Shown: positions 7,689 to 45,778 of the stretch, in pieces
Position numbering within the stretch: position 1 is the stretch's first letter
Layout: each line of letters starts with the position of its first letter
From: Terriglobia bacterium
GTDB taxonomy: Bacteria > Acidobacteriota > Terriglobia > JAIQFV01
Assembly (NCBI GenBank): GCA_020072965.1
Contig: JAIQFY010000010.1
Location: 108,243-172,242, forward strand
Direction: 5' to 3'
Length of the DNA stretch: 64,000 nucleotides
Program-made: the position numbers and the translations under genes
The notes under the pieces: model-generated
Databases searched by the model: none
Told to the model about the DNA's origin: nothing
Seen by the model: only the letters and a program-made list of their open reading frames with translations

Positions 7689-8351
7689 ATGTCTCTGTTA
7701 GGTGAGAAGGAACAGGTAATCGTAAGCGAGCAATTTCAAAGGCTCGAGAATCCTGTGAGGATGATCCACTTTACCCAGGGCTTGATGTGTGACACCTGTC
7801 CCGAGACCCAGCGCCTCCTCGAAGACCTGGCATCCCTGTCTGACAAGGTCACCCTTGAGGTCCATAACTTTGCGATTGAACAAGAACTGGCGGCGCAGTT
7901 TCAGGTGGCTCGAGTCCCTGCAACTGTTATACAGACAGAGAAGGATTTTGGAATTCGGCTTTACGGGTTGCCTTCGGGTTACGAATTTGCTTCTCTATTG
8001 CACGCCATCCTGGCCGTGTCCCGTTCCGCCACCGAGTTGTCGGAGGAATCAAAGACCCTACTCCGATCCGTTACCACTCCTACTCACATCCAGGTGTTTG
8101 TGACCCCCACCTGACCGTATTGCCCCGCGGCCGTGAAGCTCGCGTACGAACTGGCAATTGAGAACGACTACATCACCTCGGACATGGTGGAAGTTTCAGA
8201 ATATCCGGATCTGATCCGCAAGTATCAGGTTCGAGGAGTTCCGAAAACCGTGGTGAACGATACCGTTGAGTTTGTTGGCGCTCTTCCGGAAGCAGAGTTT
8301 GTCGCGCAGGTTCTAAGAGGGGTAATCCCGGCCGGTTTGGAAAACAGGTAG
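7689..8351 (+). CDS. Two-domain thioredoxin-fold protein disulfide oxidoreductase (PDO/glutaredoxin-like), predicted selenoprotein with in-frame TGA (Sec) at 8112..8114 giving a UPYC active site
   Basis: Track ORFs 7689..8114 and 8133..8351 are in the same frame and separated only by TGA. Reading through gives ...VFVTPT-U-PYCPAAVKLAYELA..., i.e. a CPYC-type redox motif with TGA at the first Cys. The first domain has a CDTC motif. A SECIS-like hairpin follows. Confidence 0.6.
8115..8160 (+). promoter_or_regulatory. Candidate bacterial SECIS hairpin downstream of UGA 8112
   Basis: ccguaUUGCCcCGCGgccgugaagcuCGCGuacgaacuGGCAA: nested stems with a GU-containing apical loop about 15-25 nt after UGA. 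Not validated by folding. Confidence 0.3.
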
Positions 8352-8533
8352 GTGGGAGGGGACGAAAACTCGAAGGAGGAAGGCGTCCTCTCACAGCGCC
8401 TGCCATCTTCCCCTCTTCTTAACACCGCGTCTTTGATGTTGCCATGACCGCATGTACTGACCGAAGGGTGCAGGCTCACACCCGCGAATGGCCGGAAAAT
8501 CCTCAGGAACAGAGAGCTGGGCCCGATCCCACC

Positions 8534-10444
8534 CTATTCCCCCGCAGGCTGTTCAGCCCCCGGAAATTGAGAGCCGAAGGCGGTCACCAAGGGCAGACCG
8601 GGAAGTGTCTCCAATGGCATAACCTCCTGTCTAACCTCGTCGTACCCATCTGGGAGATCGCCATTGTCTGGACGAAAATACCGCCAATAGTTGGGACGCA
8701 CGGAAGCGATGAGCTCTTTTCGCGTCTTGGTTTTGAGCGGTTTTCCGATGTAGATCTTGCCCATCCGCTCCAGGATCTTTTCCGGGATGGCGCCCGCAAA
8801 CATGAACAAAGGGTATTTGAAATTCGGCCCATTCAGCTTCCGTAATTTGACAAGCCACATGATCAGCGAACCAAGGCGCCAGACAGTCGGGGCCCACCAG
8901 CTGTAATTGCCCGGACGCACGTTCATCTTCCAGCACTTCATCATGAGTTGCCATTGCAGAGGGGAGAGCTGGCGCGTTTCGGTCACGCCCTGCTTATCTG
9001 CCATGCGCGTATCATGCAAAGGGGTAAAAATCGAAGGGATGAGGAAGGCGAAGACGTGACGGCGCTCCATCTCATAAACCAGATCGAGCGTCGCTTTGAC
9101 ATCCTCGTCCGTTTCGCCGGGGTTGCCCACAATCAGAGTCATGGCGGGAAACCAGTTGTTCTCGTTCAAGACCCGAAGCCCTTCCAGGATAATGCTCGGC
9201 CAGTCTTCGATGGGAAAAGGGACCGCTTTGCTCGGCATGATCTGTTTCGCCATGCGGACTGATCCTGTTTCCAAGCCAATCAAAGGAATCAGTGCTTTCT
9301 TCTGGGGATGACTGCTGAGGTACGGGAAATGGATGGGGCTCTTGGGCAAAAGGAGATTAGAGAGTTCTCTAATCAAGGTCGGATCGACGACGGCCGGGGC
9401 AATAGTGCAATGACTCAGCAGATGATGCTCGACCCCGGGCGTGTTGACGACCTCGCTAAAGAGGCCGACCAATGCTTCCCGATTCGGGAAGTAGAAAGGG
9501 ACATTGGTGTGAACCTGTCCCCAGATGAACATATCCTCGGTTGCAAGCGAGATTTGCTTGTTTCCGTTCCGGACATTCGCCCGGACTGATTTCAAGATGT
9601 TCTCCTTGGGTAGGTCGATTTGCGGATTCAAATCGGGAACACAAAACTGACATCTTCGCCCGCAGCCGGTGGTCATTTCGACGACACCGAAGGTCGTGCG
9701 CTTTTCAGGCGCAAGAATGGTCGAACCGTCCTTCGGATGTGCAACATCGACCTGCCGGGGGAGGGATTCTCCTCTGACGGCCTGATCGAATAACCTCACC
9801 GTATCTGCTGATTCGCTCCGCCCTTCGATGACGCAGTCAATGCCAAGCTCCTCGTATGAATCCGTCTTAACGACTTGCCAGCCGCCTGATCCACCCACAA
9901 TAACCTTGAATTGGTCCCGATAGGGACTTGCTTTGATCTTTGCAAAAAGGGCTCGCGCATAGTGGGAGTTGATGGGCATTTTCGAAGATCCGAACATCGA
10001 GGTATAGACCCCTGCTGCAAACGTCACTCCCAGGGGATTGTGAGTGGAGACCGCGACGACGCGGGTGTTTGGCCCGATGAATTTTTCCAAGTCGTCAGGG
10101 TAGCAAGCGACAACCTCATCCGGTCCGTAGCTCCGAAGCAAAGAAGCTTCAACCAGTCGCACACCGGCTGGCATGGTACGGGCGGAACCATCCTCGTTGT
10201 GCTCCACCTCGCGCCAATGGGGGTACTTGTCGTTAAGGAACCGCTCCATCCAAATGGGTAAAGATGCCATCATCATCTGAATAAAATAGCCGGCATGGTC
10301 AATGGTCTCAGACAGAGGCGCCGATAAGACAATCAGCCTCCCCCCATCGATCGGGGCCGATGATTGAAGGACTTGCGCCACATTGTGATGGGACGTTTCG
10401 AGCGGTATTCCATTTCCATTGCTCTTCCGAGTTTTTAGACCCAT
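8534..10444 (-). CDS. B12-binding domain radical SAM protein (with long C-terminal extension)
   Basis: Radical SAM CxxxCxxC motif TTGCGRRCQFCV. N-terminal Rossmann-like B12-binding region. Start proposed at ATG 10444 with a strong GGGAGGAG RBS; the track ORF extends to 10498. Confidence 0.75.
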   Translation of the reverse strand: MGLKTRKSNGNGIPLETSHHNVAQVLQSSAPIDGGRLIVLSAPLSETIDHAGYFIQMMMASLPIWMERFLNDKYPHWREVEHNEDGSARTMPAGVRLVEASLLRSYGPDEVVACYPDDLEKFIGPNTRVVAVSTHNPLGVTFAAGVYTSMFGSSKMPINSHYARALFAKIKASPYRDQFKVIVGGSGGWQVVKTDSYEELGIDCVIEGRSESADTVRLFDQAVRGESLPRQVDVAHPKDGSTILAPEKRTTFGVVEMTTGCGRRCQFCVPDLNPQIDLPKENILKSVRANVRNGNKQISLATEDMFIWGQVHTNVPFYFPNREALVGLFSEVVNTPGVEHHLLSHCTIAPAVVDPTLIRELSNLLLPKSPIHFPYLSSHPQKKALIPLIGLETGSVRMAKQIMPSKAVPFPIEDWPSIILEGLRVLNENNWFPAMTLIVGNPGETDEDVKATLDLVYEMERRHVFAFLIPSIFTPLHDTRMADKQGVTETRQLSPLQWQLMMKCWKMNVRPGNYSWWAPTVWRLGSLIMWLVKLRKLNGPNFKYPLFMFAGAIPEKILERMGKIYIGKPLKTKTRKELIASVRPNYWRYFRPDNGDLPDGYDEVRQEVMPLETLPGLPLVTAFGSQFPGAEQPAGE

Positions 10445-11175
10445 TTCTTCTCCTCCCGGAGATGGATTTCTGCGTACACCCGGTTCACCGGCTCTCACTT
10501 AATGAAAAACCAGGACACAGTCAAACAGGACTTCCCTCGAAATTACCCGAGGGAACGGCGTAATTCCTGTAGGAATTGACGAATCTTACATTCTTTTCCG
10601 GGTGAAAGCACGGAAAATTCGAGTATTGGGGTTTTTCTCGGGAGTAGATAACGCATTGAGTTCTGAGGAATTCGGATCGTAAAACGGTACGGTCGTCAGG
10701 GGCGTGCAAATAAGAAGCGGGTCCCGCATCGTCCTTGTAGATTCATGTGGGGCTCGATGCTGGTTGTCTTGCCTGACCCAGTATTCCTCCATTTCGAAGA
10801 AGATTCACTCGCTCCGAGATTCTGCAGCCGTCTTCTTGAACCTCCCAATCAAATGAACTTCGGAAAGTCACTAAAACACCGTCTTGAATTGCGATTGTGG
10901 AACTTGGAGAGCCTTCGCAGTAGTCAGAATCTTGAAGACAAAGGCCACAAACAAAGGCCACAAAAGGATGCGCCGGCATTTGGATCTGGAGTTTCTTTCA
11001 CAGCGACGTGGCTTGACTCCCACCCGAATCTTTTGTTACCTTGAGCAACGGTCAAAGGCATTCGGAGGCCTCCCCCCATTTCATTGTCCTCGAGCGCGAC
11101 GATGCTGAATCTTAAAGTCATGACATGCAAGCTTCCAAGGGCTTTGAACAATCACACTAATTTCAGGGTGGCCCA

Positions 11176-11862
11176 TTGAAGGCCTATCATTGGAGCCTCT
11201 TCCATTCTCATTCTGCGCCCCCCACAATGGCTCCTTGTCCACAGGACTTTAGTCCAAAGGAATGGGCGATCATCCGTAAATGTCGCACTCCTCGGCAGGT
11301 CCAGGAGTTCCTGCGCAATCTTCCATACAACTGGGAAAAGGAAACCCTGCGAACCTTTCGACAGGTGGCTCGCCATGGATCGGCCCATTGTCTTGAAGCT
11401 GCCCTGGCTGCAGCCACGATCATGGAACAGCATGGTTATCCCCCCGTGTTGCTCGATCTGGAGTCCAAGGACAATCTGGATCACGTCCTTTTTTTGTACC
11501 GCCAACATGGACATTGGGGGACGGTAGCCAAGTCGCGCGATGCCGGGTTGCACGGCCGCAAGCCGGTATTCCGGTCGATCCGGGATTTGGTGATGAGTTA
11601 CGTCGAACCTTATGTCGATTTCACCGGGCGGATCACGGGATACGGGGTGACTGATTTGAATAAACTCGTCCCCCGCTGCAACTGGCGCCTTTCAGAACGG
11701 AACATCTGGGTGGTGGAACGCGCGCTCATACACATGCCCCACAAGAAAATCAAAACCTCCACTGCACGTTTCAGGCGCGCGTTGAAGCGCTACCTCAATT
11801 TCAAAAAACGATTTCCTCACCGCCAAGCAACCTATTATAGAAACCGGCATCAGTGGTTATGA
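11176..11862 (+). CDS. Hypothetical protein (basic C-terminus)
   Basis: 228-aa ORF, TTG start in track; internal ATG at 11227 is an alternative start. No family recognised. Confidence 0.4.
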   Translation: MKAYHWSLFHSHSAPPTMAPCPQDFSPKEWAIIRKCRTPRQVQEFLRNLPYNWEKETLRTFRQVARHGSAHCLEAALAAATIMEQHGYPPVLLDLESKDNLDHVLFLYRQHGHWGTVAKSRDAGLHGRKPVFRSIRDLVMSYVEPYVDFTGRITGYGVTDLNKLVPRCNWRLSERNIWVVERALIHMPHKKIKTSTARFRRALKRYLNFKKRFPHRQATYYRNRHQWL

Positions 11863-12026
11863 GACGGATAAACAAAGGTCTCCGAACCGTTGGTACCCCT
11901 TCAAGAGCCGGGAGCATGAAAACCTCGTGAGGAACACACCGTGATGGAGGACACGAGGACACCTTGACACCTGTGCCTTTTCATGTAGAATATCACCCTA
12001 TTTTTGAGGGGGGGCGTGCATACTGA

Positions 12027-12383
12027 ATGGAAAAGAAGCGTCTCGAGTATTACAAGAAGAAACTTGAAACCAAGTATTCAGAGCTGACGCAAACCGTTTC
12101 GAAAGTGGAGCATTACGGACGAGAAGTGGATGAAGAGCCAAGTCAGGATATTGCCGACAAGGCTTCCAATTCCTATGAGAAGGAATTTCTGTTTAGTTTG
12201 ACAAACAATGATCGTTATGTCCTTCAGCTTGTCCAGGAGGCGCTGGCGCGAATCCGCGAAGGATCCTTCGGTCACTGCATTGTTTGCGAAGAGGAAGTAC
12301 AACAAAAACGGCTTGAGGCCGTCCCGTGGGCGCGTCACTGTATCGAATGTCAGGAAAAGCAGGAACAGGGACTCTTGAATTGA
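12027..12383 (+). CDS. DksA/TraR family C4-type zinc-finger protein
   Basis: 118 aa. Coiled-coil N-terminus and C-terminal CxxC-x17-CxxC (CIVCEEE...CIECQEK). GAGGGGGGG RBS. Confidence 0.7.
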   Translation: MEKKRLEYYKKKLETKYSELTQTVSKVEHYGREVDEEPSQDIADKASNSYEKEFLFSLTNNDRYVLQLVQEALARIREGSFGHCIVCEEEVQQKRLEAVPWARHCIECQEKQEQGLLN

Positions 12384-12410
12384 GCCCATTCGGACTCAGG
12401 GCTGACAATT

Positions 12411-13274
12411 CGTGTTTGCCGGTTCACTTCTATACTCTTCAGGAGGGTCGTCTTCGAACCGAGTAGTGATTGCACTCAAAACCTACCGCCGACCCCCCTG
12501 TGGAGGACCCTACTCCCCCCCGTCCTGGATTCACTCTTTTCGGTTTTACTCCCCGCCCACTGCGACCTCTGCCACGGACTGATTTCGCGAGCCTTTGACT
12601 CCACCGTCTGTGCTCGATGCTGGTCGAGCTTGCAACTGCTGAATGGTAATCTTTGCGACCTTTGTGGCAACCCCATCATCGCGACACTCGTCCCTCCCGG
12701 ATGGCGGTGCGGCCGATGCCGCCGCGGTCTCCATGAATTTGATTACTGTCGATCCTACGCGTTGTACGAGGACACGGTGCGGGAGGTGTTGCATCGATTC
12801 AAGTACGGCAGGCGGGCAAGATTGGGGGTTCGTCTGGCGCGATTGCTCTCACAAGCCTGGGCGCTCTATCCCCGTTTTCAGGAGGCCGAAGTGATTCTCC
12901 CGATGCCCCTTCACCGGCGACGAGAAAAAGAGCGGGGTTTCAATCAGTCCGGAATTCTGGCAAAATACCTGTCGGGGATGATTGGTCGGCCAATGGAATC
13001 AAGGGCCGTAGTCCGGATTCGAAACACCCCCTCGCAAACGGGCTTAAGCCCCCGACAGCGCCGACTGAACGTGTCGCAATGCTTTGAGGTCAGAAAACCC
13101 GCAGCTGTTCGGGGAAAGGCATGCCTGGTCATTGATGACGTTTTTACGACAGGGGCGACGTTAAATGCAATGGCCCGGGTTTTGAAAGAAGAAGGGGCCA
13201 CCAAAGTTTTGGCCCTGACGCTGGCTCGCGTTTCCCCACGCGCGGCGATCGGGGCGGCAAAGAAAGCGGCCTGA
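12411..13274 (+). CDS. comF: ComF/GntX family phosphoribosyltransferase-domain protein
   Basis: N-terminal Cys-rich region (CDLCHG...CARC...CDLCG...CGRC) and PRTase motif [13 protein letters not shown]. Start uncertain: the frame is open from 12405, and 12630 is the first ATG. Confidence 0.65.
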
Positions 13275-13284
13275 CAAGCGATTT

Positions 13285-13872
13285 ATGATTAGCGCAAAGT
13301 CTCATGACCGGACCCATGGGGAGATTCCCAGACCCCGGAGCGAGCCAAGCCGTTCAACCTTTATGCACACTCCCGTTCTGGTCTTGAATGCCACTTACGA
13401 ACCCATCAATATCTGCGCCGCCCGGCGTGCACTCGTCCTGGTCTTAAAGGGTGTGGCCCGCGCCGAAGAGGAACACCCGCGGTTCATTAAATCCCCAACC
13501 TTCAGTATCCGCGTTCCTTCTGTAATCCGGTTGTTGGAGTTTCGTCACATCCCCCGACAATCGCGGGCCTTGTCAAGAAAGAACATTCTGTTGCGCGACC
13601 GGAATACCTGCCAGTACTGTGGGGGGGTATTTCCACCCAATGAACTCACTCTCGACCATGTGATCCCGCGCTCGCGAGGCGGCGCTTCATCCTGGGAAAA
13701 CCTGGTCGCCTGCTGCAAGGGTTGCAATCATAAGAAAGGGAACTCAACCCCCGCGGAATCAGGCCTCCATTTGTTTCGAGAACCCCGCTCCTTTAATCTC
13801 CACACAAGCCGCCAGTTGATGCGTATGATTGGTCCCTCCGATGAACATTGGAGAAAATACCTGTTCTATTGA
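13285..13872 (+). CDS. HNH endonuclease family protein
   Basis: CQYCGG...[13 protein letters not shown]...[18 protein letters not shown] motif. Alternative ATG at 13363. Confidence 0.7.
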
Positions 13873-14177
13873 CCCGGTAGGTCATGCGGGTCGCCACCGT
13901 TCATCGCAATCCGGTCCCCTATTCTAACGAGTACAAATTACCTGCGCGGATCCATGGGGGGCGTCGTGTAGCTTGGCCCTCATGCAAAGAAACCGGCGAT
14001 ACTCAATTCTCGCCGGCCCCTTAAAACGTCAAAATTCAATGGATTAATACAAACGTCGGAATTCGAGTTACATGGGGTAATTGTGGATTCTGCGTGGTAG
14101 AGGCGTCCCCCGAGGCGGACGCCCCTACATTGAATCACGCACGATTTTGTAAACTTTTCAATAACGTTGGGATTAGT

Positions 14178-15200: not shown

Positions 15201-15605
15201 ACGCTTCTCCTTTGGAATTGATTCACACCCCACAGCGGCGGGCCCTCTTAGTATAAAGGAACCTGCCGATGTTACCATGCAGCATTCCATCCATAAAACA
15301 ACTTTTTCGTCCGCAACGGCAAACCGATCCGCTGATCGTCAGCTCCCGCGAGTACTGGGAGCGGCCGCTGCAAGCGAGCTTCTGTGGAGAGATCCACCTT
15401 GTAAAGGAGGCCATACTCGGGGATGAACCCGGGCCGTTTCGATACAAGTTGGGCATTGCAGTCTGGGGCCGAATGAGGATTCTGGCACTTTATCGCGGTC
15501 GGCCCCTATCCGGGTTTCCCTTCAGGAATTCAAATTACCGATTGTCAAGGTTCCTGCTTCTCGCTATAATGGCGGGCTTTCGAAGGTTCCCCGGAGGATA
15601 GTTGT

Positions 15606-15797
15606 ATGGCCAGAGTTTGCGACATTTGCGGCAAGAAACCCGTGTCCGGGCATCGAATCAGTCATGCCCACAATCTGACGAATCGACGGTGGCTGCCGAA
15701 TCTGCATCGGGTCCACGCGGTAGTAAAAGGGACCCGCACGACAATTCGGGCCTGCACCCGGTGTATCAGGTCCAACCGGGTCGTAAAGGCAGCCTGA
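15606..15797 (+). CDS. rpmB: 50S ribosomal protein L28
   Basis: [33 protein letters not shown] is the canonical L28 N-terminus. GGAGGA RBS. Confidence 0.85.
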
Positions 15798-16356: not shown

Positions 16357-16418
16357 GCCCTGTTACTCCTTTGAAGGATGATGGAATCCCCGGGAGGAAA
16401 CCGCCTCAGGCAGCGGAA

Positions 16419-31362: not shown

Positions 31363-31914
31363 ATGCCAATAATAACAACGCAGGAAAAGGACATCGCCCC
31401 GGGAGGAAATCCGTTTGTTGAGCAAAATACGGAGTTTGGAGCCGGGGTGGTCACCACCTCATTTGACAAGGTGGTCAATTGGGCACGGAGGTCGTCCATC
31501 TGGCCGATGACTTTCGGCCTGGCGTGTTGTGCGATCGAAATGATGGCGATGGGGGCCTCCCGTTATGACATTGCTCGGTTTGGGGCGGAGGTCTTTCGCG
31601 GCTCACCGCGACAATCGGACTTGATGATCGTGGCCGGCCGAGTCTCAAAGAAAATGGCACCGATCGTGCGCCAGCTGTATGATCAAATGCCGGAACCGAA
31701 GTGGGTTATCTCCATGGGAGTGTGCGCTACGGCGGGCGGCATCTTCAACAATTACGCCATCGTGCAGGGAGTCAACCAGGTGGTGCCGGTGGATGTGTAT
31801 ATCCCCGGATGCCCGCCACGGCCCGAACAGCTCATTTATGGAATCATGAAGCTGCAGGAGAAGATCGATCGGCAGCGCGGGAGCTTCAAGGACCTTCTTC
31901 CTTTTGGGGGTTGA
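31363..31914 (+). CDS. nuoB: NADH-quinone oxidoreductase subunit B (NuoB / 20 kDa subunit), orphan copy
   Basis: 183 aa, N2 cluster ligands [10 protein letters not shown]...GVCATAGG...CPP. Confidence 0.85.
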
Positions 31915-32090: not shown

Positions 32091-32528
32091 ATGTTGTCAA
32101 TCGGAGAGAAGGCCCCCGACTTCAAAGTGAAGACCCATGAGGGAAAGGAACTTTCGCTGGGCCAGTTTGCGGGGAGCAAAGTGGTCCTGTGGTTCTACCC
32201 CAAGGCTGACACCCCCGGCTGAACCAACGAAGGCAAAGGATTCCGTGATCGAATCCGAGAGTATGACGCAAAGAACATGAAGATCCTTGGAATCAGTTTT
32301 GATACGGTCGAGGAAAATGCCGCGTTTGCAAAGAAATTTCAGTTTCCCTTCCCCCTATTGTGCGACACTGACCGGAAAATAGGATTGGCTTATGGGGCCT
32401 GCGAATCGGTTCGGGATGAACACGCCAAGCGAATTTCATATGTGATTGGTGAAGACGGTAACATCCTTCAAGCCTATCCCAAAGTCGATGCCGCGCGCCA
32501 TCCGCAAGAAGTGCTGGAGAAGCTCTAG
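32091..32528 (+). CDS. Peroxiredoxin PrxQ/Bcp family, predicted selenoprotein with TGA (Sec) at 32220..32222 replacing the peroxidatic Cys
   Basis: Manual translation from ATG 32091 (AGGAGGGA RBS): MLSIGEKAPDFKVKTHEGKELSLGQFAGSKVVLWFYPKADTPG-U-TNEGKGFRDRIREYDAKNMKILGISFD... continues in frame into track ORF 32277..32528. FYPKADTPGxT is the Prx active-site motif with TGA at the Cp position. A possible resolving Cys is retained (LLCD, ACES). Confidence 0.7.
32238..32256 (+). promoter_or_regulatory. Candidate SECIS hairpin for Prx UGA 32220
   Basis: GGAUUC-cgugauc-GAAUCC stem-loop starting 15 nt after UGA. Apical loop contains GU. Confidence 0.35.
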
Positions 32529-33913: not shown

Positions 33914-33922
33914 GTGAGATTC

Positions 33923-35964: not shown

Positions 35965-38900
35965 CTAACGAGACGATTTCCCCACTGCCAGTGGCGAGCC
36001 GTCATCCCCAAAGAAGCTGAGCGCAGCGACGGAGGCCTCGGTGCCGATATTCAAGAAAATGAATTGGGTTTGATAGCCTCCCCCATCGGCGATTTGAGGA
36101 AAGATGATCGGGAAGGGGACAGGACGAGCCAGATCAGCGACTGGAAAGGTCGTCAGCAAAAAATCCCCACGCGCGGTGTTCAGCGAACGCATAGTCAGTG
36201 CCACGAAGCTGGCAGGAGCACTCATATCCAAGACCCCCTTGAAATCATCGGGAAGATCTGAAATCAACTCTCCCACAAACATTGCGGCGTGACCATTGGC
36301 ATTGAGATTCAAGAAGGCGAGACCCTTGCCGGCCGGGGTCCTGCCATCAAGGTGAAAAGCACTCAGGGCGATCGGGTCGGCGCCACTCTGGGGAAATGCA
36401 ATGGCTAAACCTGTGTCGTGGCCGTTCGATTTGTCAATGTAAATCCGCGCATGATTAGTCGGAAGGGCCGATGGAATTCCGGATTCCGTTACCAGGATTC
36501 CCCCCTGCGTGAGACCGAAAATCCCCGCACCGACCGGGACCTGGCTTCCTTGATTAGCTGTCACCCGGATCCAGCCCGAATTCACCGTGGGCGGTGAGCC
36601 GTCAGTTTGAAGCACAAAGATCCCCCCTGGTTTTATGGTATACGCAAAGGAGGAGCCCGAATTCCCAATGACCGGCCGGACCACACGCGGCGCCCCATCG
36701 TCTGCAAAAAGCTGAATGTTTCCGGTTTCGTCCAACCCCGAAGTGTTCAGCAAAACGACTGTCGACTGGTATCCGCCTCCATCAACTACATGTGCAAAGA
36801 AGAGCTCAGTTTCAGACGCAGTTTTCGTCAAATCGGCGATGGGAGTGGTGGTGATGAGCGTTTCACCCCGCTGATTCGTGGTTAACCGGAGGGCGACGAT
36901 GGAGAGCGGCTGGTCACTCCCGATTTCAAGGGAGCCAAATTTCGTGACTGTTGGAAAATCCGCGGCTAACTGAAAATCGGGGGCGACGTCATGAAGTTGG
37001 TCAATGAATTTGGAGAGGTGTGTACCAGCGGCGAGCACGCTGTGGCCCGAGGCCAACAGCTGACCGGCGGCATCCCGCAAGGTGAATGATACATTGGCCG
37101 CGTTCCCGCCGGGGTTTACGAGGGCGAATCCGGTGTCGATGCTAATGCTCGCTGCATCAGGATGATCAGATTTGGACGGTACACTGGTACGGTAATCGAT
37201 GAAGATCCGAGCCGCTGTTGTCGGCGGGGACACTGGAACACCCGCCTCAGTCACTACATGGCCGTTCTGTTCAAGACTAAACACGGCGGTCCCAACGAGT
37301 AATCCACTACCTGAACCCACGTCTACCGTGACATAGCCGGCTTGAACAAAGCCTGCCCCTTCCCTGGTGAAAACGGATTGCGCTCCGCCATCTATAAGAT
37401 TCATAGCGATCTGAGCATTAGCGGCCGGGCAGGAATTCAGGAGGACCGCATCGGGCGCCACAACATCGGGCTTTCCGTCTCCGTTGATGTCGCTAACTCC
37501 AATGAATGCGGAAGAGATGCCAAGGCTATAATCCACGGGGTTCTGTAAAGTGCCATCCCCGTTCCCCAAGAGGATCGAGACACTGGAGTTCAAATTAGCC
37601 ACTGCCAGATCGAGCTTGCCATCCCCATTGAAGTCACCGATCGCGAGGGAGCCGGCACTCGAAATGTCACCAAAACTAACCGGAGCCTGGAACGTCCCAT
37701 CCCCATTCCCCCTAAGGAGGACCACGCTACCGCTGAGGTTCATAAATGAGCGTCCCACGGCCAGATCGAGAATCCCATCTCCATTGAAGTCCCCTACGGC
37801 AATCTGCCCGGGCGAGATTCCCACTTCAATGGATCCAGCGTCCTGGAAGGTCCCATCCCCGTTTCCCCTGAGAAGCGCCACAAATCCAAGGCCTCCGACA
37901 CTGTTGCCGGAATCAATGACCGCCAGATCAGGAATCCCGTCGCCGTTGAAGTCTCCTGTCACGGCTGACGCCCCGGGATTTGTACCCGCAAGGTTATGGA
38001 TTGGCGGCTGAAACGTGCCATCCCCGTTCCCCAGTAAAATGGTGACATCCCCGCGCTGCGAGAAAAAGTTGTGCACCACCTGGCTGGGGTTCACTACCGC
38101 CAAATCGAGCATACCGTCGTTATTGAAATCTGAAACGACAATGTAGAAAGGATTTGATCCCGCCGCAATTTTCGAGGAAGCCTGAAAAGTGCCATCCCCG
38201 TTCCCCAACAGAATTGAAATGTCTTTGGAGGTGAAATTACTCACCACCAGATCCGTCTTTCCATCCCGGTTGAAATCGCCCGCGGTAACGAACACCGGAC
38301 TCGATCCGACAGGATAAGTCGATGGTGTTCGAAAAGAGCCGTCGCCATTCCCCAACAAGATTGCCAGCGTATCCGAACCCCGATTAGGCACTGACAGATC
38401 GGGTATTCCATCACCGTTCAGATCTGCCAGCCAGAATCGTCCCGGGCCTGATCCCGTGCTGTAGTTCACCGCACTTTGAAAAGTCCCGTCGCCCTTCCCA
38501 ACCAAAATGGCGAGGGTGTCGTTGGAGATGTTTGCTGCCGCCAAGTCGCGTTTCCCATGCCCCGTAAGATCCCCCACGGCAACAAACACGGAATTAAACG
38601 GCAGACTGATGGCCATCGGAGGCCGGAAGGAGCCATCGCCGTTTCCTAACATGACTGAAGAATCCGCCACCAGATCGAGATTGCCGTCGCCGTTGAAGTC
38701 GCCCGGGATGACGAATCCGAACGCGGTTCCAGGGCTGTCTATCGGGGCTTGAAAGGTACCATCTCCTTTGCCGAGCAAAATCGAGACCCTCCCATTCGGA
38801 CCCCGGACGGCGAGATCCGTTGTGCCGTCACGATTGAAATCGCCAGCAGCAAAAGGGATGGCTGCAGCGGCACCAACGCCAGGCCCATTCCGGAAGGTGC

Positions 38901-39627
38901 CATCGCCATTCCCCAACAAGATGAATACTGATTCCAGGCTCACTCCGGCGATCACCAAGTCTGCGATTCCATCGCCATTAAAATCTGCGGCGACCAGCGA
39001 GGAGGGAAACGTCGCCAGGGTGGTATCTGAAGTTGTCTGAAAGGTGCCATCACCGTTTCCCAGAAATACAGAGACACTCTTTGAGAATTGGTTTGCCACA
39101 ACAAAATCGAGTTTACCGTCCCGGTTGAAGTCGCCGGTCACGACGGAGTTCGGTCCGATGCCAGCCTGGTAGTCCGCGGCCGCCCCGAAGGAGCCATCAC
39201 CTTTACCCAGAAGGATCGACACATCGTTGTCCCGCTGATTCACCACCACCAAGTCGGGCTTGTTGTCCCCATTAAAATCTCCAATGGCCACGGACACCGG
39301 ATCGGATCCGACGCCATAATTCACAGCGGCCTGAAAGGTCCCATCCCCTTTCCCGAGCAGGATGGAAACATTGTTGGAACCGAAATTGACAGCGACGAGG
39401 TCTCCCTTGCCATCTCCGTTGAAGTCACCTATGGCCACGAATACAGGGGTAGCGCCGGCAATGAAATCGGGTTTCACTGAGAAACTTGGAGTCGTGCAGG
39501 CAATGGCGGCAGCAAGGAGGTTCCGTCCAACAATACCAGAGAGACTCACCATCATGAGCAGGACATACCAAAGCGTCCAGGAATGAAGACCAAGGTCCTT
39601 TCCGGTCTTATTGCTCACTTCTTTCAC
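35965..39627 (-). CDS. Large secreted FG-GAP/VCBS-repeat (integrin-alpha-like beta-propeller) protein with duplicated C-terminal domain
   Basis: 1220 aa. Signal peptide. About 17 repeats of GDFNGDGKxDLvv.N..sn.VSILLGNGDGTFQ. C-terminal ~450 aa contains two copies of an unidentified ~190-aa domain, each ending ...TTPIADL / ...TTFPVADL. Confidence 0.8.
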   Translation of the reverse strand: MKEVSNKTGKDLGLHSWTLWYVLLMMVSLSGIVGRNLLAAAIACTTPSFSVKPDFIAGATPVFVAIGDFNGDGKGDLVAVNFGSNNVSILLGKGDGTFQAAVNYGVGSDPVSVAIGDFNGDNKPDLVVVNQRDNDVSILLGKGDGSFGAAADYQAGIGPNSVVTGDFNRDGKLDFVVANQFSKSVSVFLGNGDGTFQTTSDTTLATFPSSLVAADFNGDGIADLVIAGVSLESVFILLGNGDGTFRNGPGVGAAAAIPFAAGDFNRDGTTDLAVRGPNGRVSILLGKGDGTFQAPIDSPGTAFGFVIPGDFNGDGNLDLVADSSVMLGNGDGSFRPPMAISLPFNSVFVAVGDLTGHGKRDLAAANISNDTLAILVGKGDGTFQSAVNYSTGSGPGRFWLADLNGDGIPDLSVPNRGSDTLAILLGNGDGSFRTPSTYPVGSSPVFVTAGDFNRDGKTDLVVSNFTSKDISILLGNGDGTFQASSKIAAGSNPFYIVVSDFNNDGMLDLAVVNPSQVVHNFFSQRGDVTILLGNGDGTFQPPIHNLAGTNPGASAVTGDFNGDGIPDLAVIDSGNSVGGLGFVALLRGNGDGTFQDAGSIEVGISPGQIAVGDFNGDGILDLAVGRSFMNLSGSVVLLRGNGDGTFQAPVSFGDISSAGSLAIGDFNGDGKLDLAVANLNSSVSILLGNGDGTLQNPVDYSLGISSAFIGVSDINGDGKPDVVAPDAVLLNSCPAANAQIAMNLIDGGAQSVFTREGAGFVQAGYVTVDVGSGSGLLVGTAVFSLEQNGHVVTEAGVPVSPPTTAARIFIDYRTSVPSKSDHPDAASISIDTGFALVNPGGNAANVSFTLRDAAGQLLASGHSVLAAGTHLSKFIDQLHDVAPDFQLAADFPTVTKFGSLEIGSDQPLSIVALRLTTNQRGETLITTTPIADLTKTASETELFFAHVVDGGGYQSTVVLLNTSGLDETGNIQLFADDGAPRVVRPVIGNSGSSFAYTIKPGGIFVLQTDGSPPTVNSGWIRVTANQGSQVPVGAGIFGLTQGGILVTESGIPSALPTNHARIYIDKSNGHDTGLAIAFPQSGADPIALSAFHLDGRTPAGKGLAFLNLNANGHAAMFVGELISDLPDDFKGVLDMSAPASFVALTMRSLNTARGDFLLTTFPVADLARPVPFPIIFPQIADGGGYQTQFIFLNIGTEASVAALSFFGDDGSPLAVGKSSR

Positions 39628-39716
39628 CTCCGATTACTCAGAACTTCACTCGTCAAACAAACCAATTCTAGCACTTTGGTCTCCGACTATTCGGATCTCG
39701 ATCGCAAGGTGATCCA

Positions 39717-42380
39717 CTACCTTGCGTTTTTCCCCACTGCCATGCTCGAGCCGTCGTCTCCAAAGAAGTTGAGCGTTGTGCTGGCCCCGCCTGTCGCGCT
39801 CAGCAGAATAAACTGAGTCGTGAATCCTCCACCGGCGGCGATTTGAGGGAAGATCATAGGGCTTGGGGCAGGCTGATTCACGTCCGCGATTGGAAAAGTG
39901 GTCAACAGAAAATCTCCGCCCGTGGCACTGAGTGAGCGAAGAGTGAGCGCCGCGAAGGGAGTCGCCGGGAGGAATATCGTTGGTAGTGAAGTGACATCCA
40001 AAACTCCGGTGAAGCCCTCGGGCAGGGATGCAATGAAAAACTGGTTGGCAAACTTAGCCGCATGTCCGTTGGGGTCGAGATCCAGGCTCCCCGTCGCGAC
40101 CGGCGTGATCCCATCCGCTTCAAATGCCGTGATCGAAGCATGAAGAGGCACACTCCCGGCAATGGCGATGGCCACCCCCGTGTTGTGCCGGTTCGTCAGA
40201 TCAACGTAGAGGCGTGCATGAGTGGTTAGATTTGCCGAGGGGATACCGGACTCGGTGACGAGATTACCAGCTCTCCGGAGACTGAATATCCCAGCGCCGA
40301 CCGGGGTCGTGGTCCCGGAATCTGGTGTAAGCTGGACCGAGCCTGCATTCACGAATTGCGGCGATCCGTCGGTCTGAAAGATGAAAACTCCCTCCGGGGG
40401 GATCAAGTATGGGAACGAGGATCCCGACGAACCGTTGATCGCATTCACCGATAGAGGAGAACCGGAATCGCTGAAGATTTTCAGATTCCCCGTCTCCACC
40501 CCCTCGGAGGTGTTCAGGAGCACCAGGGTCGTCCGGTAACCCCCTCCATCCACCAGTTGAGGAAAGGAAAGAGGATCTTGCGACGGGGCCTTGGTCAAAT
40601 CCGCGATGGGTGTGGTTGTCAGTAGCGTTTCCGATTGCTGGTTGGTAGTCAACCGCAACGCCACGATGGACATCGGTTCTTCGCTCGTGATCTCCAAAGA
40701 CCCAAATCCAACCTCAGTCGGAAAGTTCGGCGGCACAACCAAGCCGGGAGCCAGCTCAGTAATGAAGTTTGCCAGGTGAGCTTTTGAGGGGAGAGTTATA
40801 GCGCCTGAAGCCAGGACTTTCCCTTGTGAATCCCGTAACTTCAAGGCGATCTGAGCCGTATTTGTCCCAAGGTTAACCACGGCGAGCCCCGTGTTGACAC
40901 TGATTGCGCCTGAGCTCTCCTGATTGGACTTCGAAGGGACTACATTTCGATAATCAATAAAAATCCGGGCATCCAAAGTCGGGGGGGAAGCGGGGACGCC
41001 CGCCTCACTGACCACCACACCGTTCTGAACAAGGCTGAACACGGCAACTCCGTATGGCGCACTTCCCGAATTCGTATCAACGGTTGCGTAGCCTGCCTCA
41101 ACATTGCCGATTCTACCCAGCGTCGAAAGGGTGCCCGATCCTCCTGCCGTAACGGCGAGGGTCACGGAGCTCTTCGGGGTCAGGCAGGTGCTCAGATCAA
41201 TGTAAAGGTTGTTGAGAGAAGAATTGAACGCCGCCAAGTCGGGCTGTCCATCCCCGTTGAAGTCACCACTGATGAGGGAGCGCCCACCCACAGCGGCACT
41301 TAGGGTTGGGCCGATCTTAAAAGTCCCGTCCCCGTTCCCCCATAGAACTGAAACGTCCTTGGTGAATTGGTTGATCCCCGCCAAATCCGTTTTGCCATCT
41401 CCATCAAAGTCAGCCGTTACAAACGGACTCAGGCCGGCGGTGGCAAGATCTATCACAGGGGCCTGAAATGTTCCATCCCCATTGCTGAGTAAAACGGAAA
41501 TGACGCTGGCCTTCGACGCCGCTAGGTCGGTCTTCCCATCCCCGTTGAAATCGCCCGTTGCAACCAGTCCATCAAAACTGGATCCACCCAAGAAGCTCGA
41601 ACCTGGTTGGAAAGTCCCATCACCTTTCCCAAGCAAAATCGAGATCTCGCTGGTGGTCGCCACGGCCAAGTCTGTCTTCCCGTCACCATTAAAATCACCG
41701 GCAGCCAACGATTTGGGGGAAGACACAATCCCAATGTCCTGCGATGGCTGAAAAGTCCCGTCGCCCTTCCCCAGAATGATCGACACCCCTGTGAAACTGA
41801 CTACAGCCAAATCGAGTTTGTTGTCCTTGTTAAAATCGGCCACTGCTACATAGATCAAGATCGACCCCGGCACAAACACCAAAGGAGATTGGAAGGCGCC
41901 ATCACCTTTCCCAAGCCAAATCGAAACGGTGCTGGGACCTTGGAAATGTATGCTGCCGCCATTCTCAATCAGGACCAGATCCACCTTTCCATCCCCGTTA
42001 AAATCCCCCACGGCAGCGGAACTCACACTTCCTCCGCGAGTGTCCGAGTTGATGGGCAAGCGGAATGTTCCATCGCCGTTGCCGAGAAGGACAACAACAG
42101 AGAATGCGAGTGAGTTGATGTTGCCCCTATGGCTGAATCCAATGACATCGGAAATTCCATCCCCATTAAGGTCTCCAGCCACCACGAAAGAATCTCCTAA
42201 GTTGAGGTTAACGGTGGGAGCACCTAGAAAACCTGGGGTTGTGCACCCACTGGAGGCGTGCAATACCGATATTGGACCGTTGCATAATGCAAGAAGATAG
42301 ATGCTGAGTACCAACATGAAAGGAAAAAATTCGAAGGAACGGCGGCTTTTGTTCAGTATAGTCATTGCTGTGCACCTCAA
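39717..42380 (-). CDS. Large secreted FG-GAP/VCBS-repeat protein, tandem paralog of 35965..39627
   Basis: 887 aa. Same repeat type (GDFNGDGKTDLA...SILLGKGDGTFQ). Same C-terminal duplicated domain and C-terminal tail (NFFGDDGSSMAVGKNAR versus SFFGDDGSPLAVGKSSR). Confidence 0.8.
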   Translation of the reverse strand: MRCTAMTILNKSRRSFEFFPFMLVLSIYLLALCNGPISVLHASSGCTTPGFLGAPTVNLNLGDSFVVAGDLNGDGISDVIGFSHRGNINSLAFSVVVLLGNGDGTFRLPINSDTRGGSVSSAAVGDFNGDGKVDLVLIENGGSIHFQGPSTVSIWLGKGDGAFQSPLVFVPGSILIYVAVADFNKDNKLDLAVVSFTGVSIILGKGDGTFQPSQDIGIVSSPKSLAAGDFNGDGKTDLAVATTSEISILLGKGDGTFQPGSSFLGGSSFDGLVATGDFNGDGKTDLAASKASVISVLLSNGDGTFQAPVIDLATAGLSPFVTADFDGDGKTDLAGINQFTKDVSVLWGNGDGTFKIGPTLSAAVGGRSLISGDFNGDGQPDLAAFNSSLNNLYIDLSTCLTPKSSVTLAVTAGGSGTLSTLGRIGNVEAGYATVDTNSGSAPYGVAVFSLVQNGVVVSEAGVPASPPTLDARIFIDYRNVVPSKSNQESSGAISVNTGLAVVNLGTNTAQIALKLRDSQGKVLASGAITLPSKAHLANFITELAPGLVVPPNFPTEVGFGSLEITSEEPMSIVALRLTTNQQSETLLTTTPIADLTKAPSQDPLSFPQLVDGGGYRTTLVLLNTSEGVETGNLKIFSDSGSPLSVNAINGSSGSSFPYLIPPEGVFIFQTDGSPQFVNAGSVQLTPDSGTTTPVGAGIFSLRRAGNLVTESGIPSANLTTHARLYVDLTNRHNTGVAIAIAGSVPLHASITAFEADGITPVATGSLDLDPNGHAAKFANQFFIASLPEGFTGVLDVTSLPTIFLPATPFAALTLRSLSATGGDFLLTTFPIADVNQPAPSPMIFPQIAAGGGFTTQFILLSATGGASTTLNFFGDDGSSMAVGKNAR

Positions 42381-42775
42381 AACCAGAGTGTTATTGAAAC
42401 CGAGATCGCTCCGGGCGCTATACCATTCAGAGGAGGGGTCAATGAGGTTTAGGTCGGATGGGTGGTCTGATGACTTAAGTCAAGGGGGATTGCCCAGAGT
42501 TGCGATTCTTGGGAGACCGAATCTGGCGCTGAAGCCTCAACAGCCCCGGCCTACAAATCAATTCTCGACCGCTTCCCAGAAAAAGTCAAAGGATTACTGA
42601 GAGATAATACCCTTATGCACAGTAGATTGAGGAGAGTGAGCATGCCCGGACAATCAACCTCAGAATCCGCTCACCCTTGCATGACACGCATTTGATCAAT
42701 TCGGGATTGTTACGAATTCTCCCTTCGTGCCTGAACAGCGAGCCCGAATCTCCTTACTGATGCGGCATCCGGGCC

Positions 42776-44320
42776 TTATTTCTCCAGCTTCAGCTTTTCA
42801 CCAAACGGTTTTTCCAGCCCGTGCTTGGCGGCAGCGAGGGCGCCGCGGGTATCCTCTCCTAGTTGCACCGCACCAGCATACTCGCGAACAGCGCTTTCAC
42901 GTTCGCCTTCCAGGTCGAAGAGCCGCCCCAGGTACACATGCGACCAGGCCTTGGTGGCGTTGTCGGCATTCTTGTCCTGAAGCGCCTGCTCGAAATAAGA
43001 CCTCGCGTCTTCAAGATTCCGCTGCATGCTGCAGGCAACGCCCAGCCCATAGAGCGCTTTTGACCGCAAATCCGCATCCGACTCGGCGATTTGTTTAAAG
43101 ATTTTCTTAGCCGATTCGTACTTTTCTTCGCTGATCAGGTCTTCAGCCTCATCCAGCTTCTTTTCATTCTCGGTCCGTGGGCGCTTGGGAGGCGCCGGGG
43201 TGGGTGGGACCGGAACCAGAGCGAGCGAGGCGGCATACTTCTTTTCGGCCTCGATGTCGATTGATTCCACCATGTCGCCCAGGGCCTCCCGGATCCCTTG
43301 TTCTCCCTTTTCAAACTCTTGAAACTGAGTGTAGAAATGCTTGATTAGAAAAAATCCTGAGGCGGCATTCCGCGTGAGTTCGTCATCGGCTTTGGCCGCC
43401 GGAAGTTTTCGCATACGGAGCTCCGCCGCACGGATCACGCACTCGATCGCGTAGAGCACGAAATCCTTTCTAAACTGGGGATCGAGGTTGGGATTCTTCG
43501 ATGCCACCTCCATCAATGCTTGCTTGTGAAAAAACCGGTTGGCATATTTCAGGCTCAGCGGATCGAGGACAAAATGCAAGAATTGATGCCGGATTTCATC
43601 CAGGTTGGCCCGTGGCGCGGGACTGATGACCAAATAGTAATCCTCGCCGTAATTGCGCGCCAGGGCCGCAGAACTGGCTCCGAGCATATCAATCGCGATC
43701 GAGTAGCGGCGTCCCAGATAGGAGGAAGAGGGCAGCCGGAGGTAGGCCTCGGTTTGCTGAACGGTCCGCATGATGGGGGCCTGTTGTGCCTCTATATAGG
43801 CTTCTATCGTCGGCTGGGCATTTCCCCAAAGCTTCTCTAAATGAGTTGCTTCGTAAAATTCCTTTACCAGGGGCTGAAATTCCTCGATGGGCAGCACATC
43901 GGGAGGCAGCTTGTCATGGCTCCAGACGAAACGCCATTTCGGAGGCTGATCGAGCACCAGCGCCAGCGACACGTATCTGGACAACTCCGCACTGCGGTCG
44001 GGTCCCTCCTGATGCGACACATAAAATTGTTTCAGCTTCTCACGCAGTTCGGCCGGAAGATCTTTATCGATCGCGTTTTGAACCTGCTGACGGACCGCGG
44101 CGACGCCAGGAGTGCCTGCCGAGCCAAAACCAAATCCCGCGGCGTGGAGTGCCGACAGCACTGTGAACAGGCGGACGTCACCATCCAGGGTAATCATCGA
44201 CTGCTGTGCGCACAGCGGAGAAACAAGTAGCAATCCCAGGTACGCTATCTTCCCGATCAACCGGGTGGCCCATTCAACGGTTTGTGAACTCATTCGACCT
44301 TTCCATCCCCTCCCGAGCAT
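42776..44320 (-). CDS. Secreted protein with C-terminal TPR repeats
   Basis: 514 aa. Signal-like N-terminus. Pro-rich linker (VPVPPTPAPPKRPR). C-terminal TPR units. Confidence 0.55.
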   Translation of the reverse strand: MLGRGWKGRMSSQTVEWATRLIGKIAYLGLLLVSPLCAQQSMITLDGDVRLFTVLSALHAAGFGFGSAGTPGVAAVRQQVQNAIDKDLPAELREKLKQFYVSHQEGPDRSAELSRYVSLALVLDQPPKWRFVWSHDKLPPDVLPIEEFQPLVKEFYEATHLEKLWGNAQPTIEAYIEAQQAPIMRTVQQTEAYLRLPSSSYLGRRYSIAIDMLGASSAALARNYGEDYYLVISPAPRANLDEIRHQFLHFVLDPLSLKYANRFFHKQALMEVASKNPNLDPQFRKDFVLYAIECVIRAAELRMRKLPAAKADDELTRNAASGFFLIKHFYTQFQEFEKGEQGIREALGDMVESIDIEAEKKYAASLALVPVPPTPAPPKRPRTENEKKLDEAEDLISEEKYESAKKIFKQIAESDADLRSKALYGLGVACSMQRNLEDARSYFEQALQDKNADNATKAWSHVYLGRLFDLEGERESAVREYAGAVQLGEDTRGALAAAKHGLEKPFGEKLKLEK

Positions 44321-44453
44321 TTACCCTACGTCAGGCGGCGAAGATCATACGCTGAAAAGCCTCGCAAATATTCCCTGAAATTGCAAGCCTCACTTCCGCC
44401 ATTTACATTCCAGACGTAGAACAAGTGGCCCAATATGATAAGATAAACTCAGT

Positions 44454-45029
44454 ATGCGAAAAGGGTTGAAATCCGCACCGGTTCTACTCGCCATCGTCCT
44501 GTTGATGTCATGTGGAGGGAGGCAGGATAAGAGGCTCGCTCAGAACATCGAATCACTCCAAATCGCGGATGTGGCGGAAACGGACCTGAAAGTCAGTTCA
44601 TTCCATCCGCACGGAAAAGACGAAGCCATCCTGGTGGCGGATGTTCACACGGCATTCCTCATGAAACGGAATTCGCGGGGGGAATGGGAGATTCAATCCG
44701 TCCGCATGGGCGATCGCAATTGGGAGGACGCGAAGGATTTTGCCCGGGCACTAAACCAGGTGCGGCTCGAACGCGTCAAGAGAGATTTCGAGAAAATTGC
44801 GAATGCCCTCGAAAAGTACCAGGCCCAGACAAAAACCTTGCCCGCCATCAAGGGGATCGGCCCCCTTGTGGATCTCTTGTTCCCGACCTATCTGGCAGAA
44901 GCAGTGCGGGTCGATCCCTGGGCAACAGAATATGACTACCAACTCAGCACACCCACTTCATACGTCCTGATTTCCGCTGGGCCGGACCGCAAGTTTGGGA
45001 CTGGCGACGACATCCGGTTCGAGCATTAA
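44454..45029 (+). CDS. Lipoprotein with C-terminal type II secretion pseudopilin GspG-like domain
   Basis: Lipobox LLMSCG. C-terminal DPWATEYDYQLSTPTSYVLISAGPDRKFGTGDDIRFEH resembles the GspG C-terminal fold motif but lacks a prepilin leader. Confidence 0.5.
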   Translation: MRKGLKSAPVLLAIVLLMSCGGRQDKRLAQNIESLQIADVAETDLKVSSFHPHGKDEAILVADVHTAFLMKRNSRGEWEIQSVRMGDRNWEDAKDFARALNQVRLERVKRDFEKIANALEKYQAQTKTLPAIKGIGPLVDLLFPTYLAEAVRVDPWATEYDYQLSTPTSYVLISAGPDRKFGTGDDIRFEH

Positions 45030-45187
45030 ACGGACGCGGACAAACACGGAACACACGGAGAAGTAATAACAGCTATCCATGGATTTGAACCTTGTCGTTG
45101 TACGGACCAGCCAAAATGCAAACCGGCTGGCGATGACAAGAGTCAGGTCAGGCCAGCCGGAATAACATTCTTAATCCCGCCGGAACC

Positions 45188-45778
45188 TCAAGGAAATTTC
45201 GTCACGGCGTCCACGACCTGCTGATCGGGCAAAAGCTTGCCTTCCACGTTTTCCCAGAGGATTTTCCCGTCTGTTCCCACCAGAAAGTACGTTCGCTTGG
45301 CCACCACGGAATGGATTCCCGGGACGTTGATTTCATGTTCGATGTGATAGTCCTTCACCACCTTGCGTTCCATATCACTCAGCAGAGGAAAGGGCAGACT
45401 CAGACTTTCTCTGAATTTATCCTGGGAAAAGGGTGTGTCGGTGCTGATTCCCCACACTTCGATGTTCTTGGCCTTTAACTTTTCATAATTCTCTCTGAAC
45501 CCAGAGAGCTCGGTCGTTCAACCCCCGGTGAAATCGAAAACATAAAAGGCCAGAAGGACCTTTTTTTTGCCGCGCATGTCACTCAATTTCATCGGGGTGA
45601 GTTTGGCTCCGGAGGGGAGGGCAAAGTCCGGTGCTGCGTCTCCCACCTTGGGGGGTTGCTCGCCGGTACTGACGGGAGGGGACGCACTTTGAGCTACTAA
45701 GGCTAATGTGGCCATCAGCATTACAGCCACAAAAAGGGACAAAACTAGAAACGTTTTTTTCATTGATTCCTTCCTCAA
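45188..45778 (-). CDS. Exported AhpC/TSA-family peroxiredoxin, predicted selenoprotein with TGA (Sec) at 45518..45520 at the peroxidatic position
   Basis: Track ORFs 45518..45778 and 45188..45457 are in the same frame. Reading through gives signal peptide ...[51 protein letters not shown]... The Prx FxxDFTxVCxTE motif has TGA in place of Cys. Confidence 0.7.
45491..45508 (-). promoter_or_regulatory. Candidate SECIS hairpin for UGA 45518
   Basis: mRNA: UGA acgaccgag CUCUCUG-gguu-CAGAGAG. 7-bp stem, GGUU apical loop 17 nt downstream of UGA. Confidence 0.4.

Follow-up and report, generated by a model that had tools for sequence, protein, structure and literature searches.

Catalytic-site UGA codons mark three probable selenoprotein genes in an uncultured Terriglobia lineage

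Introduction

Peroxiredoxins (Prx; PF00578, motif TxxU, where U denotes selenocysteine, Sec) and a UxxC family of the TIGR02187 type are both catalogued as bacterial selenoprotein families (PMC13188914). The type example of the Sec-Prx family, PrxU of Eubacterium acidaminophilum, has been proven experimentally, and further members have been described computationally (Zhang et al. 2006; 2026 review, PMC13188914). Selenoproteins have also been listed in Acidobacteria (Zhang et al. 2006, PMC1794560), and among cultured Terriglobia, Occallatibacter riparius is listed as using Sec, with three selenoprotein genes known (PMC12013277). In Sulfolobus, the re-reduction of Bcp1, Bcp3 and Bcp4 falls not to thioredoxin but to a protein disulfide oxidoreductase (PDO), which acts through its C-terminal site (PMC7465337). 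Here, we analyzed 64,000 nucleotides of DNA from an uncultured Terriglobia bacterium (NCBI GenBank assembly GCA_020072965.1, contig JAIQFY010000010.1, positions 108,243 to 172,242 of the forward strand; G+C content about 54%), referred to as the window throughout. It holds three thiol-redox genes, a two-domain PDO (G1), a PrxQ/BCP-type peroxiredoxin (G2) and a secreted AhpC/TSA peroxiredoxin (G3), each carrying an in-frame TGA at the codon of a catalytic cysteine. We put the probability that these are three genuine selenoprotein genes, with one UGA each read as Sec, at roughly 0.9. All three are members of already described selenoprotein families, here from an uncultured Terriglobia lineage.

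Results

Three TGA codons at catalytic positions of thiol-redox genes

A six-frame translation in which TGA was shown as U picked out three TGAs that lie within redox motifs and are flanked by long open frames. A preliminary description of this DNA had proposed three unlinked redox genes with TGA in place of the catalytic cysteine, and our analysis bears this out: in alignments to structures and database homologues, each TGA falls on the active-site Cys, and the genes lie tens of kilobases apart with no conserved linkage. The six-frame scan revealed no further credible TGA-interrupted gene in the window, and in ~20 kb of flanking contig all hits were out-of-frame noise.

The product of G1 (coordinates of all features in Table 1) has two active sites, an ordinary CDTC at the N-terminal and UPYC at the C-terminal site, the latter in the context FVTPT-U-PYC as read from both the DNA and its translation. 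With Cys entered for U, it scored 260.6 bits with the NCBIfam model TIGR02187.2 ('PDO_seleno_TRX', cut-off 185) over profile positions 2-208 of 209. The PDO of Pyrococcus furiosus (1A8L) aligned with G1 residues 3-210 (E = 2.9e-49) and placed the TGA on the first Cys of the C-terminal CPYC; a second structure, 1J08, likewise aligned with G1 over its full length. G1 belongs to the PDO/AhpF-N-terminal-like selenoprotein family (TIGR02187), with a score above the equivalog cut-off, two thioredoxin-fold units and a C-terminal C/UxxC motif. In the public record its N-terminal fragment is deposited as a 141-aa 'MAG: thioredoxin family protein' (MBZ5535829.1; MAG, metagenome-assembled genome). The G1 set comprises four orthologue types of 80-100% identity, all of them syntenic and all with the TGA; it is kept, within the same 220-codon frame, in the related loci L004/L005 (80%), L007 (87%) and L009 (84%), and one syntenic orthologue with TGA is held by the NCBI assembly GCA_020073085.1. 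Between G1 and L009, the codons after the TGA differ by 28 synonymous and 6 non-synonymous changes.

G2 matches the Pfam family AhpC-TSA (4.3e-34, 117.6 bits, gathering cut-off 26), and its TGA stands in the context PKADTPG-U-T, so that the motif PKADTPGU (PxxxTxxU) is present. In the BCP/PrxQ structures 3DRN and 5ENU, the peroxidatic Cys corresponds to the G2 TGA. Five residues after U (U+5), where many of its Sec homologues have a Cys, G2 has none and would therefore need an external or distal resolving thiol. Codons after the TGA showed 29 synonymous and 10 non-synonymous changes in comparison to locus L013, 48 and 15 in comparison to L014, and 41 and 23 in comparison to L015.

G3 matches AhpC-TSA equally well (3.1e-34, 118 bits, gathering cut-off 26), and the structures 2YWN and 2CX3 place their peroxidatic Cys on its TGA. 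Its motif, VFDFTGGU, has Val where PxxxTxxC/U has the active-site Pro, and so departs from the canonical Pro; the motif keeps its Thr and U, and the conserved Arg is present as R157, a residue that does not vary in alignment A2. Hydrophobic N-termini, as in the predicted signal peptide of G3, recur in its homologues in A2. The gene had been taken to extend to 45778, which corresponds to an upstream in-frame TTG; this boundary had to be revised, as gene callers start at ATG 45763, which follows the ribosome-binding site GAGGAAGGA and gives the 81-aa product on record. In comparison to the homologous locus L093, codons after the TGA carried 53 synonymous and 10 non-synonymous changes.

Probable selenocysteine codons in the closest peroxiredoxin relatives

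The preliminary description had called for a comparison with Cys-containing orthologues. We scanned bacterial genomes, a single one for each species, for relatives of G2, using a query with Cys and search patterns that left out the peroxidatic codon. Among the 80 best loci (58-88% identity), 79 fit the active-site pattern; their peroxidatic codon was TGA in 66 and a Cys codon in 13 (TGC in nine, TGT in four). Most carriers of Sec-PrxQ are Acidobacteriota, spanning Terriglobia, Thermoanaerobaculia, Polarisedimenticolia, Vicinamibacteria and 'Marinacidobacterales', and Binatia occur as well; complete Acidobacteriota chromosomes such as OZ245365.1 are among them. The locus nearest to G2 (88%) comes from a Terriglobia MAG.

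For the G3 subfamily, TGA was found in all nine JGI metagenome loci that cover the site (L093 at 80% and eight more distant ones). The 120 best protein-database matches of G3 comprised 104 with P...C, 13 with V...W and two with V...C (P0144, P0181). Looking up homologues printed with 'W' (L105, L106/L107) showed a TGA codon in the DNA in both cases, indicating that on these short contigs a Sec codon had been translated with a TGA=Trp code by the source pipelines. Val in the motif thus goes with Sec in 13 of 15 cases among these 120 matches, and Val for Pro occurs in every Sec form of the subfamily seen (window 45518-45541, minus strand; L093-L102, L105-L107; P0125, P0129, P0134, P0141, P0148, P0149).

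The 'Marinacidobacterales' chromosome OZ240210.1 (9.2 Mb) holds four Sec-PrxQ copies (L035, L037, L053, L087). In three of them, the 75 nt at and following the TGA do not differ at all, as if a selenoprotein gene had been duplicated recently. Sec-PrxQ genes like those of Binatia and Acidobacteriota also turned up in MAGs titled Klebsiella pneumoniae, Enterobacteriaceae and Clostridia (L041, L066, L047, L071); these bins are probably mislabelled or contaminated. Printing of Trp (P0125, P0129, P0134, P0149 and others) and splitting of genes both hide selenoproteins from protein-level searches. Finally, a NuoB-like gene (Oxidored_q6, 183 aa; 31363-31914, plus strand) precedes G2 by 176 nt in the same orientation and is solitary, the neighbourhood being free of further complex I genes. 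As this adjacency is found in the three closest relatives only, we propose no functional link between the two genes.

Hairpins downstream of the UGA codons

The preliminary description had also placed a hairpin downstream of each TGA. Folding recovered all three, with loops starting 16-22 nt after the UGA and a G in the first two loop positions. We compared them to the published model of the bacterial selenocysteine insertion sequence (bSECIS; PMC13188914), which calls for a loop of 3-9 nt, G in the first two loop positions, a spacing of 16-37 nt and a minimum free energy (MFE) of at most -7.5 kcal/mol. G1 and G3 pass this model, and G2 misses it on energy alone. Rfam, searched at gathering thresholds, returned nothing in the window.

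The clearest comparative signal comes from the PrxQ family. An 8-bp hairpin with a GUU loop, formed by alignment columns 13-20 and 24-31, is 92.9% paired across 64 distinct Sec-PrxQ sequences, whereas controls in which the pairing was slid reached 35-55%. One of its pairs occurs as GC (40), CG (14), AU (4) and GU (4), that is with compensatory changes, in which a Cys/Ser codon change is matched by a synonymous Arg codon change. Moreover, the RNA downstream of the peroxidatic codon folds more stably in Sec than in Cys forms (-14.8 versus -10.4 kcal/mol; Mann-Whitney p = 0.0026). In the clade of G2 itself (window, L013, L014, L015, L071, L076), the hairpin seen across the family has decayed, the U+5 codon here specifying Lys or Asn, and a second hairpin, GGAUUC/GAAUCC, located 6 nt further downstream, is perfect in all six sequences. 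In exactly these six, a Gly codon has changed synonymously from GGG to GGA, which improves the second hairpin by replacing a G-U pair with A-U. As a family-wide structure, the G2 hairpin was rejected: across the 64 Sec homologues it is 61% paired, barely above the slid controls, and shows no compensatory changes, so it is specific to the window's clade.

In homologues of G3, a hairpin recurs at the corresponding position although its stem sequence varies (CUCUCUG/CAGAGAG, GACCGA/UCGGUC, AUAUC/GAUAU); the loops begin with G and are of the G(G)UU type. The G1 hairpin has a loop AGC in its MFE form and can alternatively fold as CGCGGCC/GGCUCGCG, with one C-C mismatch and the loop GUGAA. Right after the G1 TGA, 23 nt (8121-8143) form the longest stretch of the gene that is invariant in all four orthologues, although a run of this kind is not improbable alone; together with the model pass, it is suggestive of a SECIS. 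Overall, comparison lends good support to the SECIS of the PrxQ family, qualitative support to that of G3 and weak support to that of G1.

Separately, two Cys-form (TGC) PrxQ genes from Blastocatellia MAGs (L065, L091; ~2148-2166) have the GGGUUC...GAAUCC hairpin of the Sec forms, perhaps left over from a recent switch from Sec to Cys, or else simply a consequence of encoding G-F-R-D-R-I.

The TGAs are conserved and probably read through

Fragments of G1, G2 and G3 split at the TGA were found on seven, five and five contigs, respectively, from separate ENA, NCBI and Logan assemblies; the five contigs with the 81-aa fragment of G3 that ends at the TGA include one independent Logan assembly. TGAs and full-length frames are kept in syntenic orthologues of 79-88% identity, and the codons downstream of the TGA are under purifying selection at the same level as those upstream. 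Were premature stops to arise at random, we estimate that the probability of their falling on the sole catalytic codon in genes of 220, 145 and 191 codons would be about 1.6e-7.

The UGA codons might be recoded to a residue other than Sec, either Cys, by a tRNA(Cys)-UCA of the selC*/selB* system, or another residue, by allo-tRNAs. Indeed, selC* tRNA(Cys)-UCA can read a Sec-position UGA as Cys, allo-tRNAs in Acidobacteria may serve as nonsense suppressors (Mukai et al., PMC5389517), and we deduce the residue at UGA from DNA. However, the groups from which selC* has been reported are Firmicutes, Thermodesulfobacteria, Nitrospirae and Proteobacteria and do not include Acidobacteria (PMC5389517), and allo-tRNAs have Ser or Ala identity, either of which would inactivate a catalytic Cys/Sec site. 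For these two reasons we consider such recoding quite unlikely. In addition, the conserved hairpin after the UGA fits delivery by SelB, and Sec use is documented in Terriglobia. TGA also remains the commonest ordinary stop in the window (17 of 42 long open reading frames, ORFs), indicating that the genetic code has not been reassigned.

That the TGAs are true stops, giving truncated or split polypeptides (141 aa plus 72 aa for G1) or marking decaying pseudogenes, is highly improbable. Public gene calls do split all three genes at the TGA, as in the deposited 141-aa fragment of G1, and internal GTG or ATG codons follow each TGA. Yet the stop would sit exactly on the catalytic codon in three genes, and half of a thioredoxin fold would be missing from any single fragment. 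The downstream part stands in the same frame in every orthologue, which takes neither a ribosome-binding site nor a conserved start to explain, and the selection on its codons matches that upstream. Moreover, the TGA is kept across lineages that differ by 12-60% in protein sequence, which is not expected of pseudogenes. Lastly, although the window is a metagenome assembly and one third-position change turns a Cys codon into TGA, the notion of sequencing or assembly errors, or of population variants of TGC/TGT, already disfavored in the preliminary description, is effectively refuted by the same TGAs in separate assemblies from ENA, NCBI, JGI and Logan as well as in dozens of further species, by diverged orthologues with downstream purifying selection, and by a chance of about 1e-7 for three errors each on a catalytic codon.

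Decoding machinery and other genes of the window

As noted in the preliminary description, the window itself encodes none of selA, selB, selD and selC: ARAGORN found no tRNA gene, and a Pfam scan of 40 window ORFs, including every ORF of at least 300 codons, found SelA, SelB or SelD domains in none. Extending the flanks by ~9 kb on the right (L011) or ~6 kb on the left (L103) revealed no sel gene, and ARAGORN detected no tRNA-Sec in 102-109 related loci, with two tRNA-Arg as the only hits. Given the documented Sec use in Acidobacteria and Terriglobia (PMC1794560, PMC12013277), we expect the sel genes elsewhere in the genome. The translation factor gene at 59281-61389 (minus strand) was correctly described as not SelB-like. 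It has the domains EFG_III, EFG_IV and EFG_C, which rule it out as SelB, and no match to the SelB winged helix. Its 702-aa product contains all five EF-G domains and is of the second-copy type, away from ribosomal protein operons.

Elsewhere in the window, a 329-aa pyridine-nucleotide disulfide oxidoreductase (Pyr_redox_3, 2e-84; 54003-54992, plus strand), possibly a flavoprotein disulfide reductase, is directly followed by a YqeY-like gene (54996-55445, plus strand). Two adjacent genes at 35965-39627 and 39717-42380 (both minus strand) encode very large, secreted-looking proteins of 1220 and 887 aa in which FG-GAP repeats take up nearly the whole length. Pfam returned nothing at E <= 1e-5 for three ORFs of 501, 272 and 228 aa (57310-58815 and 47073-47891, minus strand; 11176-11862, plus strand), the first of which is also conserved on further contigs from this population.

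Table 1. Coordinates of the three proposed selenoprotein genes and their elements in the window
Feature	Coordinates	Strand	Details
G1, PDO selenoprotein gene	7689..8351	+	ATG 7689 to TAG 8351, 220 codons; TIGR02187.2, 1A8L and orthologues in the same 220-codon frame
G1 Sec-UGA	8112..8114	+	Codon 142; replaces first Cys of the C-terminal CPYC site
Putative bSECIS of G1	8121..8144	+	By folding; passes published bSECIS model; loop starts 18-22 nt after UGA
G2, PrxQ/BCP-type peroxiredoxin selenoprotein gene	32091..32528	+	ATG 32091 to TAG 32528, 145 codons; Pfam AhpC-TSA
G2 Sec-UGA	32220..32222	+	Codon 44, peroxidatic position
Putative bSECIS of G2	32238..32256	+	GGAUUC/CGUGAUC/GAAUCC; 6-bp stem; loop 21 nt after UGA, G then U at loop positions 2-3
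G3, secreted AhpC/TSA (BCP-like) peroxiredoxin selenoprotein gene	45188..45763	-	ATG 45763 to TGA 45188, 191 codons
Predicted Sec-type (export) signal peptide of G3	45689..45763	-	Basic N-terminus, hydrophobic core, small-residue cleavage motif before QS; read from sequence
G3 Sec-UGA	45518..45520	-	Codon 82, peroxidatic position; context FDFTGG-U-T
Putative bSECIS of G3	45491..45508	-	CUCUCUG/GGUU/CAGAGAG; 7-bp stem; loop 16 nt after UGA; -10.4 kcal/mol

Discussion

The placement of the three TGAs on catalytic codons, their conservation, the translation of the downstream codons and the covarying hairpin of the PrxQ family together argue for Sec-encoding genes. Several points weigh against this interpretation. 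The hairpins of G1, G2 and G3 are not significant relative to shuffled sequence (z = -0.96, +0.25 and -0.47, respectively). Of all 2401 TGA trinucleotides in the window, 14.5% pass the bSECIS model as we coded it, so that little can be built on the hairpin of a single sequence, and the case for the hairpins rests mainly on comparison. For the G1 hairpin, this comparison spans just four close orthologue types. The G2 hairpin reaches -7.1 kcal/mol against the limit of -7.5 and differs from the hairpin conserved in most of the PrxQ family. Finally, no selA, selB, selD or tRNA-Sec is found in the window plus ~15 kb of flanks.

We infer that Sec is the residue inserted at each UGA. By analogy with the established bacterial mechanism, SelB-GTP with Sec-tRNA(Sec) would bind the hairpin that follows the UGA at a distance of 16-22 nt, still inside the coding sequence, and deliver the Sec-tRNA(Sec) to the ribosomal A site, competing with release factor 2. 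The G1 product would then be a cytoplasmic two-domain disulfide oxidoreductase whose UPYC site forms a selenenylsulfide. G2 would encode a cytoplasmic PrxQ/BCP peroxidase and G3 an exported BCP-like peroxidase, both with a peroxidatic Sec that peroxide would oxidize to a selenenic acid and a thiol partner would then reduce again. G1 may be the reductant of G2, as in the archaeal chain of thioredoxin reductase, PDO and Bcp. Such an electron path from G1 to G2 appears plausible since G1 is a PDO-kind protein with Sec in its C-terminal site; because the genes are unlinked (24 kb apart, no conserved linkage), we propose it by analogy only.

These findings leave the known picture of Sec encoding unchanged, and a specialist would expect the result. 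They nevertheless extend Sec-dependent peroxide defence to an uncultured lineage of Terriglobia, and they call for correcting the annotation of G1, G2 and G3, which are split or truncated in public records and should be merged and marked as selenoproteins. The dominance of Sec-PrxQ (66 of the 79 closest species-level relatives) bears on the selenium dependence of soil Acidobacteriota. This dominance, the replacement of a SECIS hairpin by its neighbour within an orthologous group, and the near-exclusive association of Sec with Val for Pro in the exported G3 subfamily may go slightly beyond the existing catalogue, and we make no firm claim on any of them. More tentatively, and with considerable doubt, one could suppose that in much of the Acidobacteriota and Binatia, BCP/PrxQ-type peroxidases use Sec and not Cys by default for catalysis, and that the G3 type ('FYV..FTGGU') is mechanistically distinct. 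If this were true, these abundant soil and sediment phyla would hold a far larger thiol-peroxidase selenoproteome than the 3-4 selenoproteins per genome credited to Acidobacteria, largely hidden in databases by gene calls that are split in two or print Trp for Sec, and the exported G3 subfamily would couple Sec to the loss of an otherwise universal active-site proline.

How does the locus compare to described systems? Within the TIGR02187 selenoprotein family (Carboxydothermus hydrogenoformans ABB15282.1; Cys form, the P. furiosus PDO 1A8L), G1 is alike in fold and has U on the C-terminal CPYC, but it comes from a Terriglobia MAG of mesophile type, from soil or peat, and not from a thermophile, and its N-terminal site is CDTC instead of the CQYC of the Pyrococcus PDO. 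With the Sec-Prx family (PF00578, TxxU), G2 and G3 share the AhpC/TSA fold, the UGA at the peroxidatic position and a hairpin within the ORF. Membership in PrxU proper was rejected for both (NCBIfam NF040737, 43.6 and 59.9 bits, cut-off 270); they are instead BCP/PrxQ-like, G3 being exported and having Val for Pro. As in the chain of NADPH, thioredoxin reductase, PDO and Bcp of Sulfolobus solfataricus, the window has a PDO (G1) and BCP-type peroxiredoxins (G2, G3), and S. solfataricus Bcp1 and Bcp4 (3DRN, 3HJP) are among the closest solved relatives of G2/G3; in contrast to that chain, the catalytic residues here would be Sec, and no reductase is tied to the window genes. Like the SECIS of E. 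coli fdhF, the hairpins of the window lie directly 3' of the UGA inside the ORF, although they bear no sequence resemblance to the fdhF element. In line with the consensus bSECIS, their loops (GGUU, CGUGAUC, and AGC or GUGAA) have G at position 1 or 2 and a spacing of 16-22 nt.

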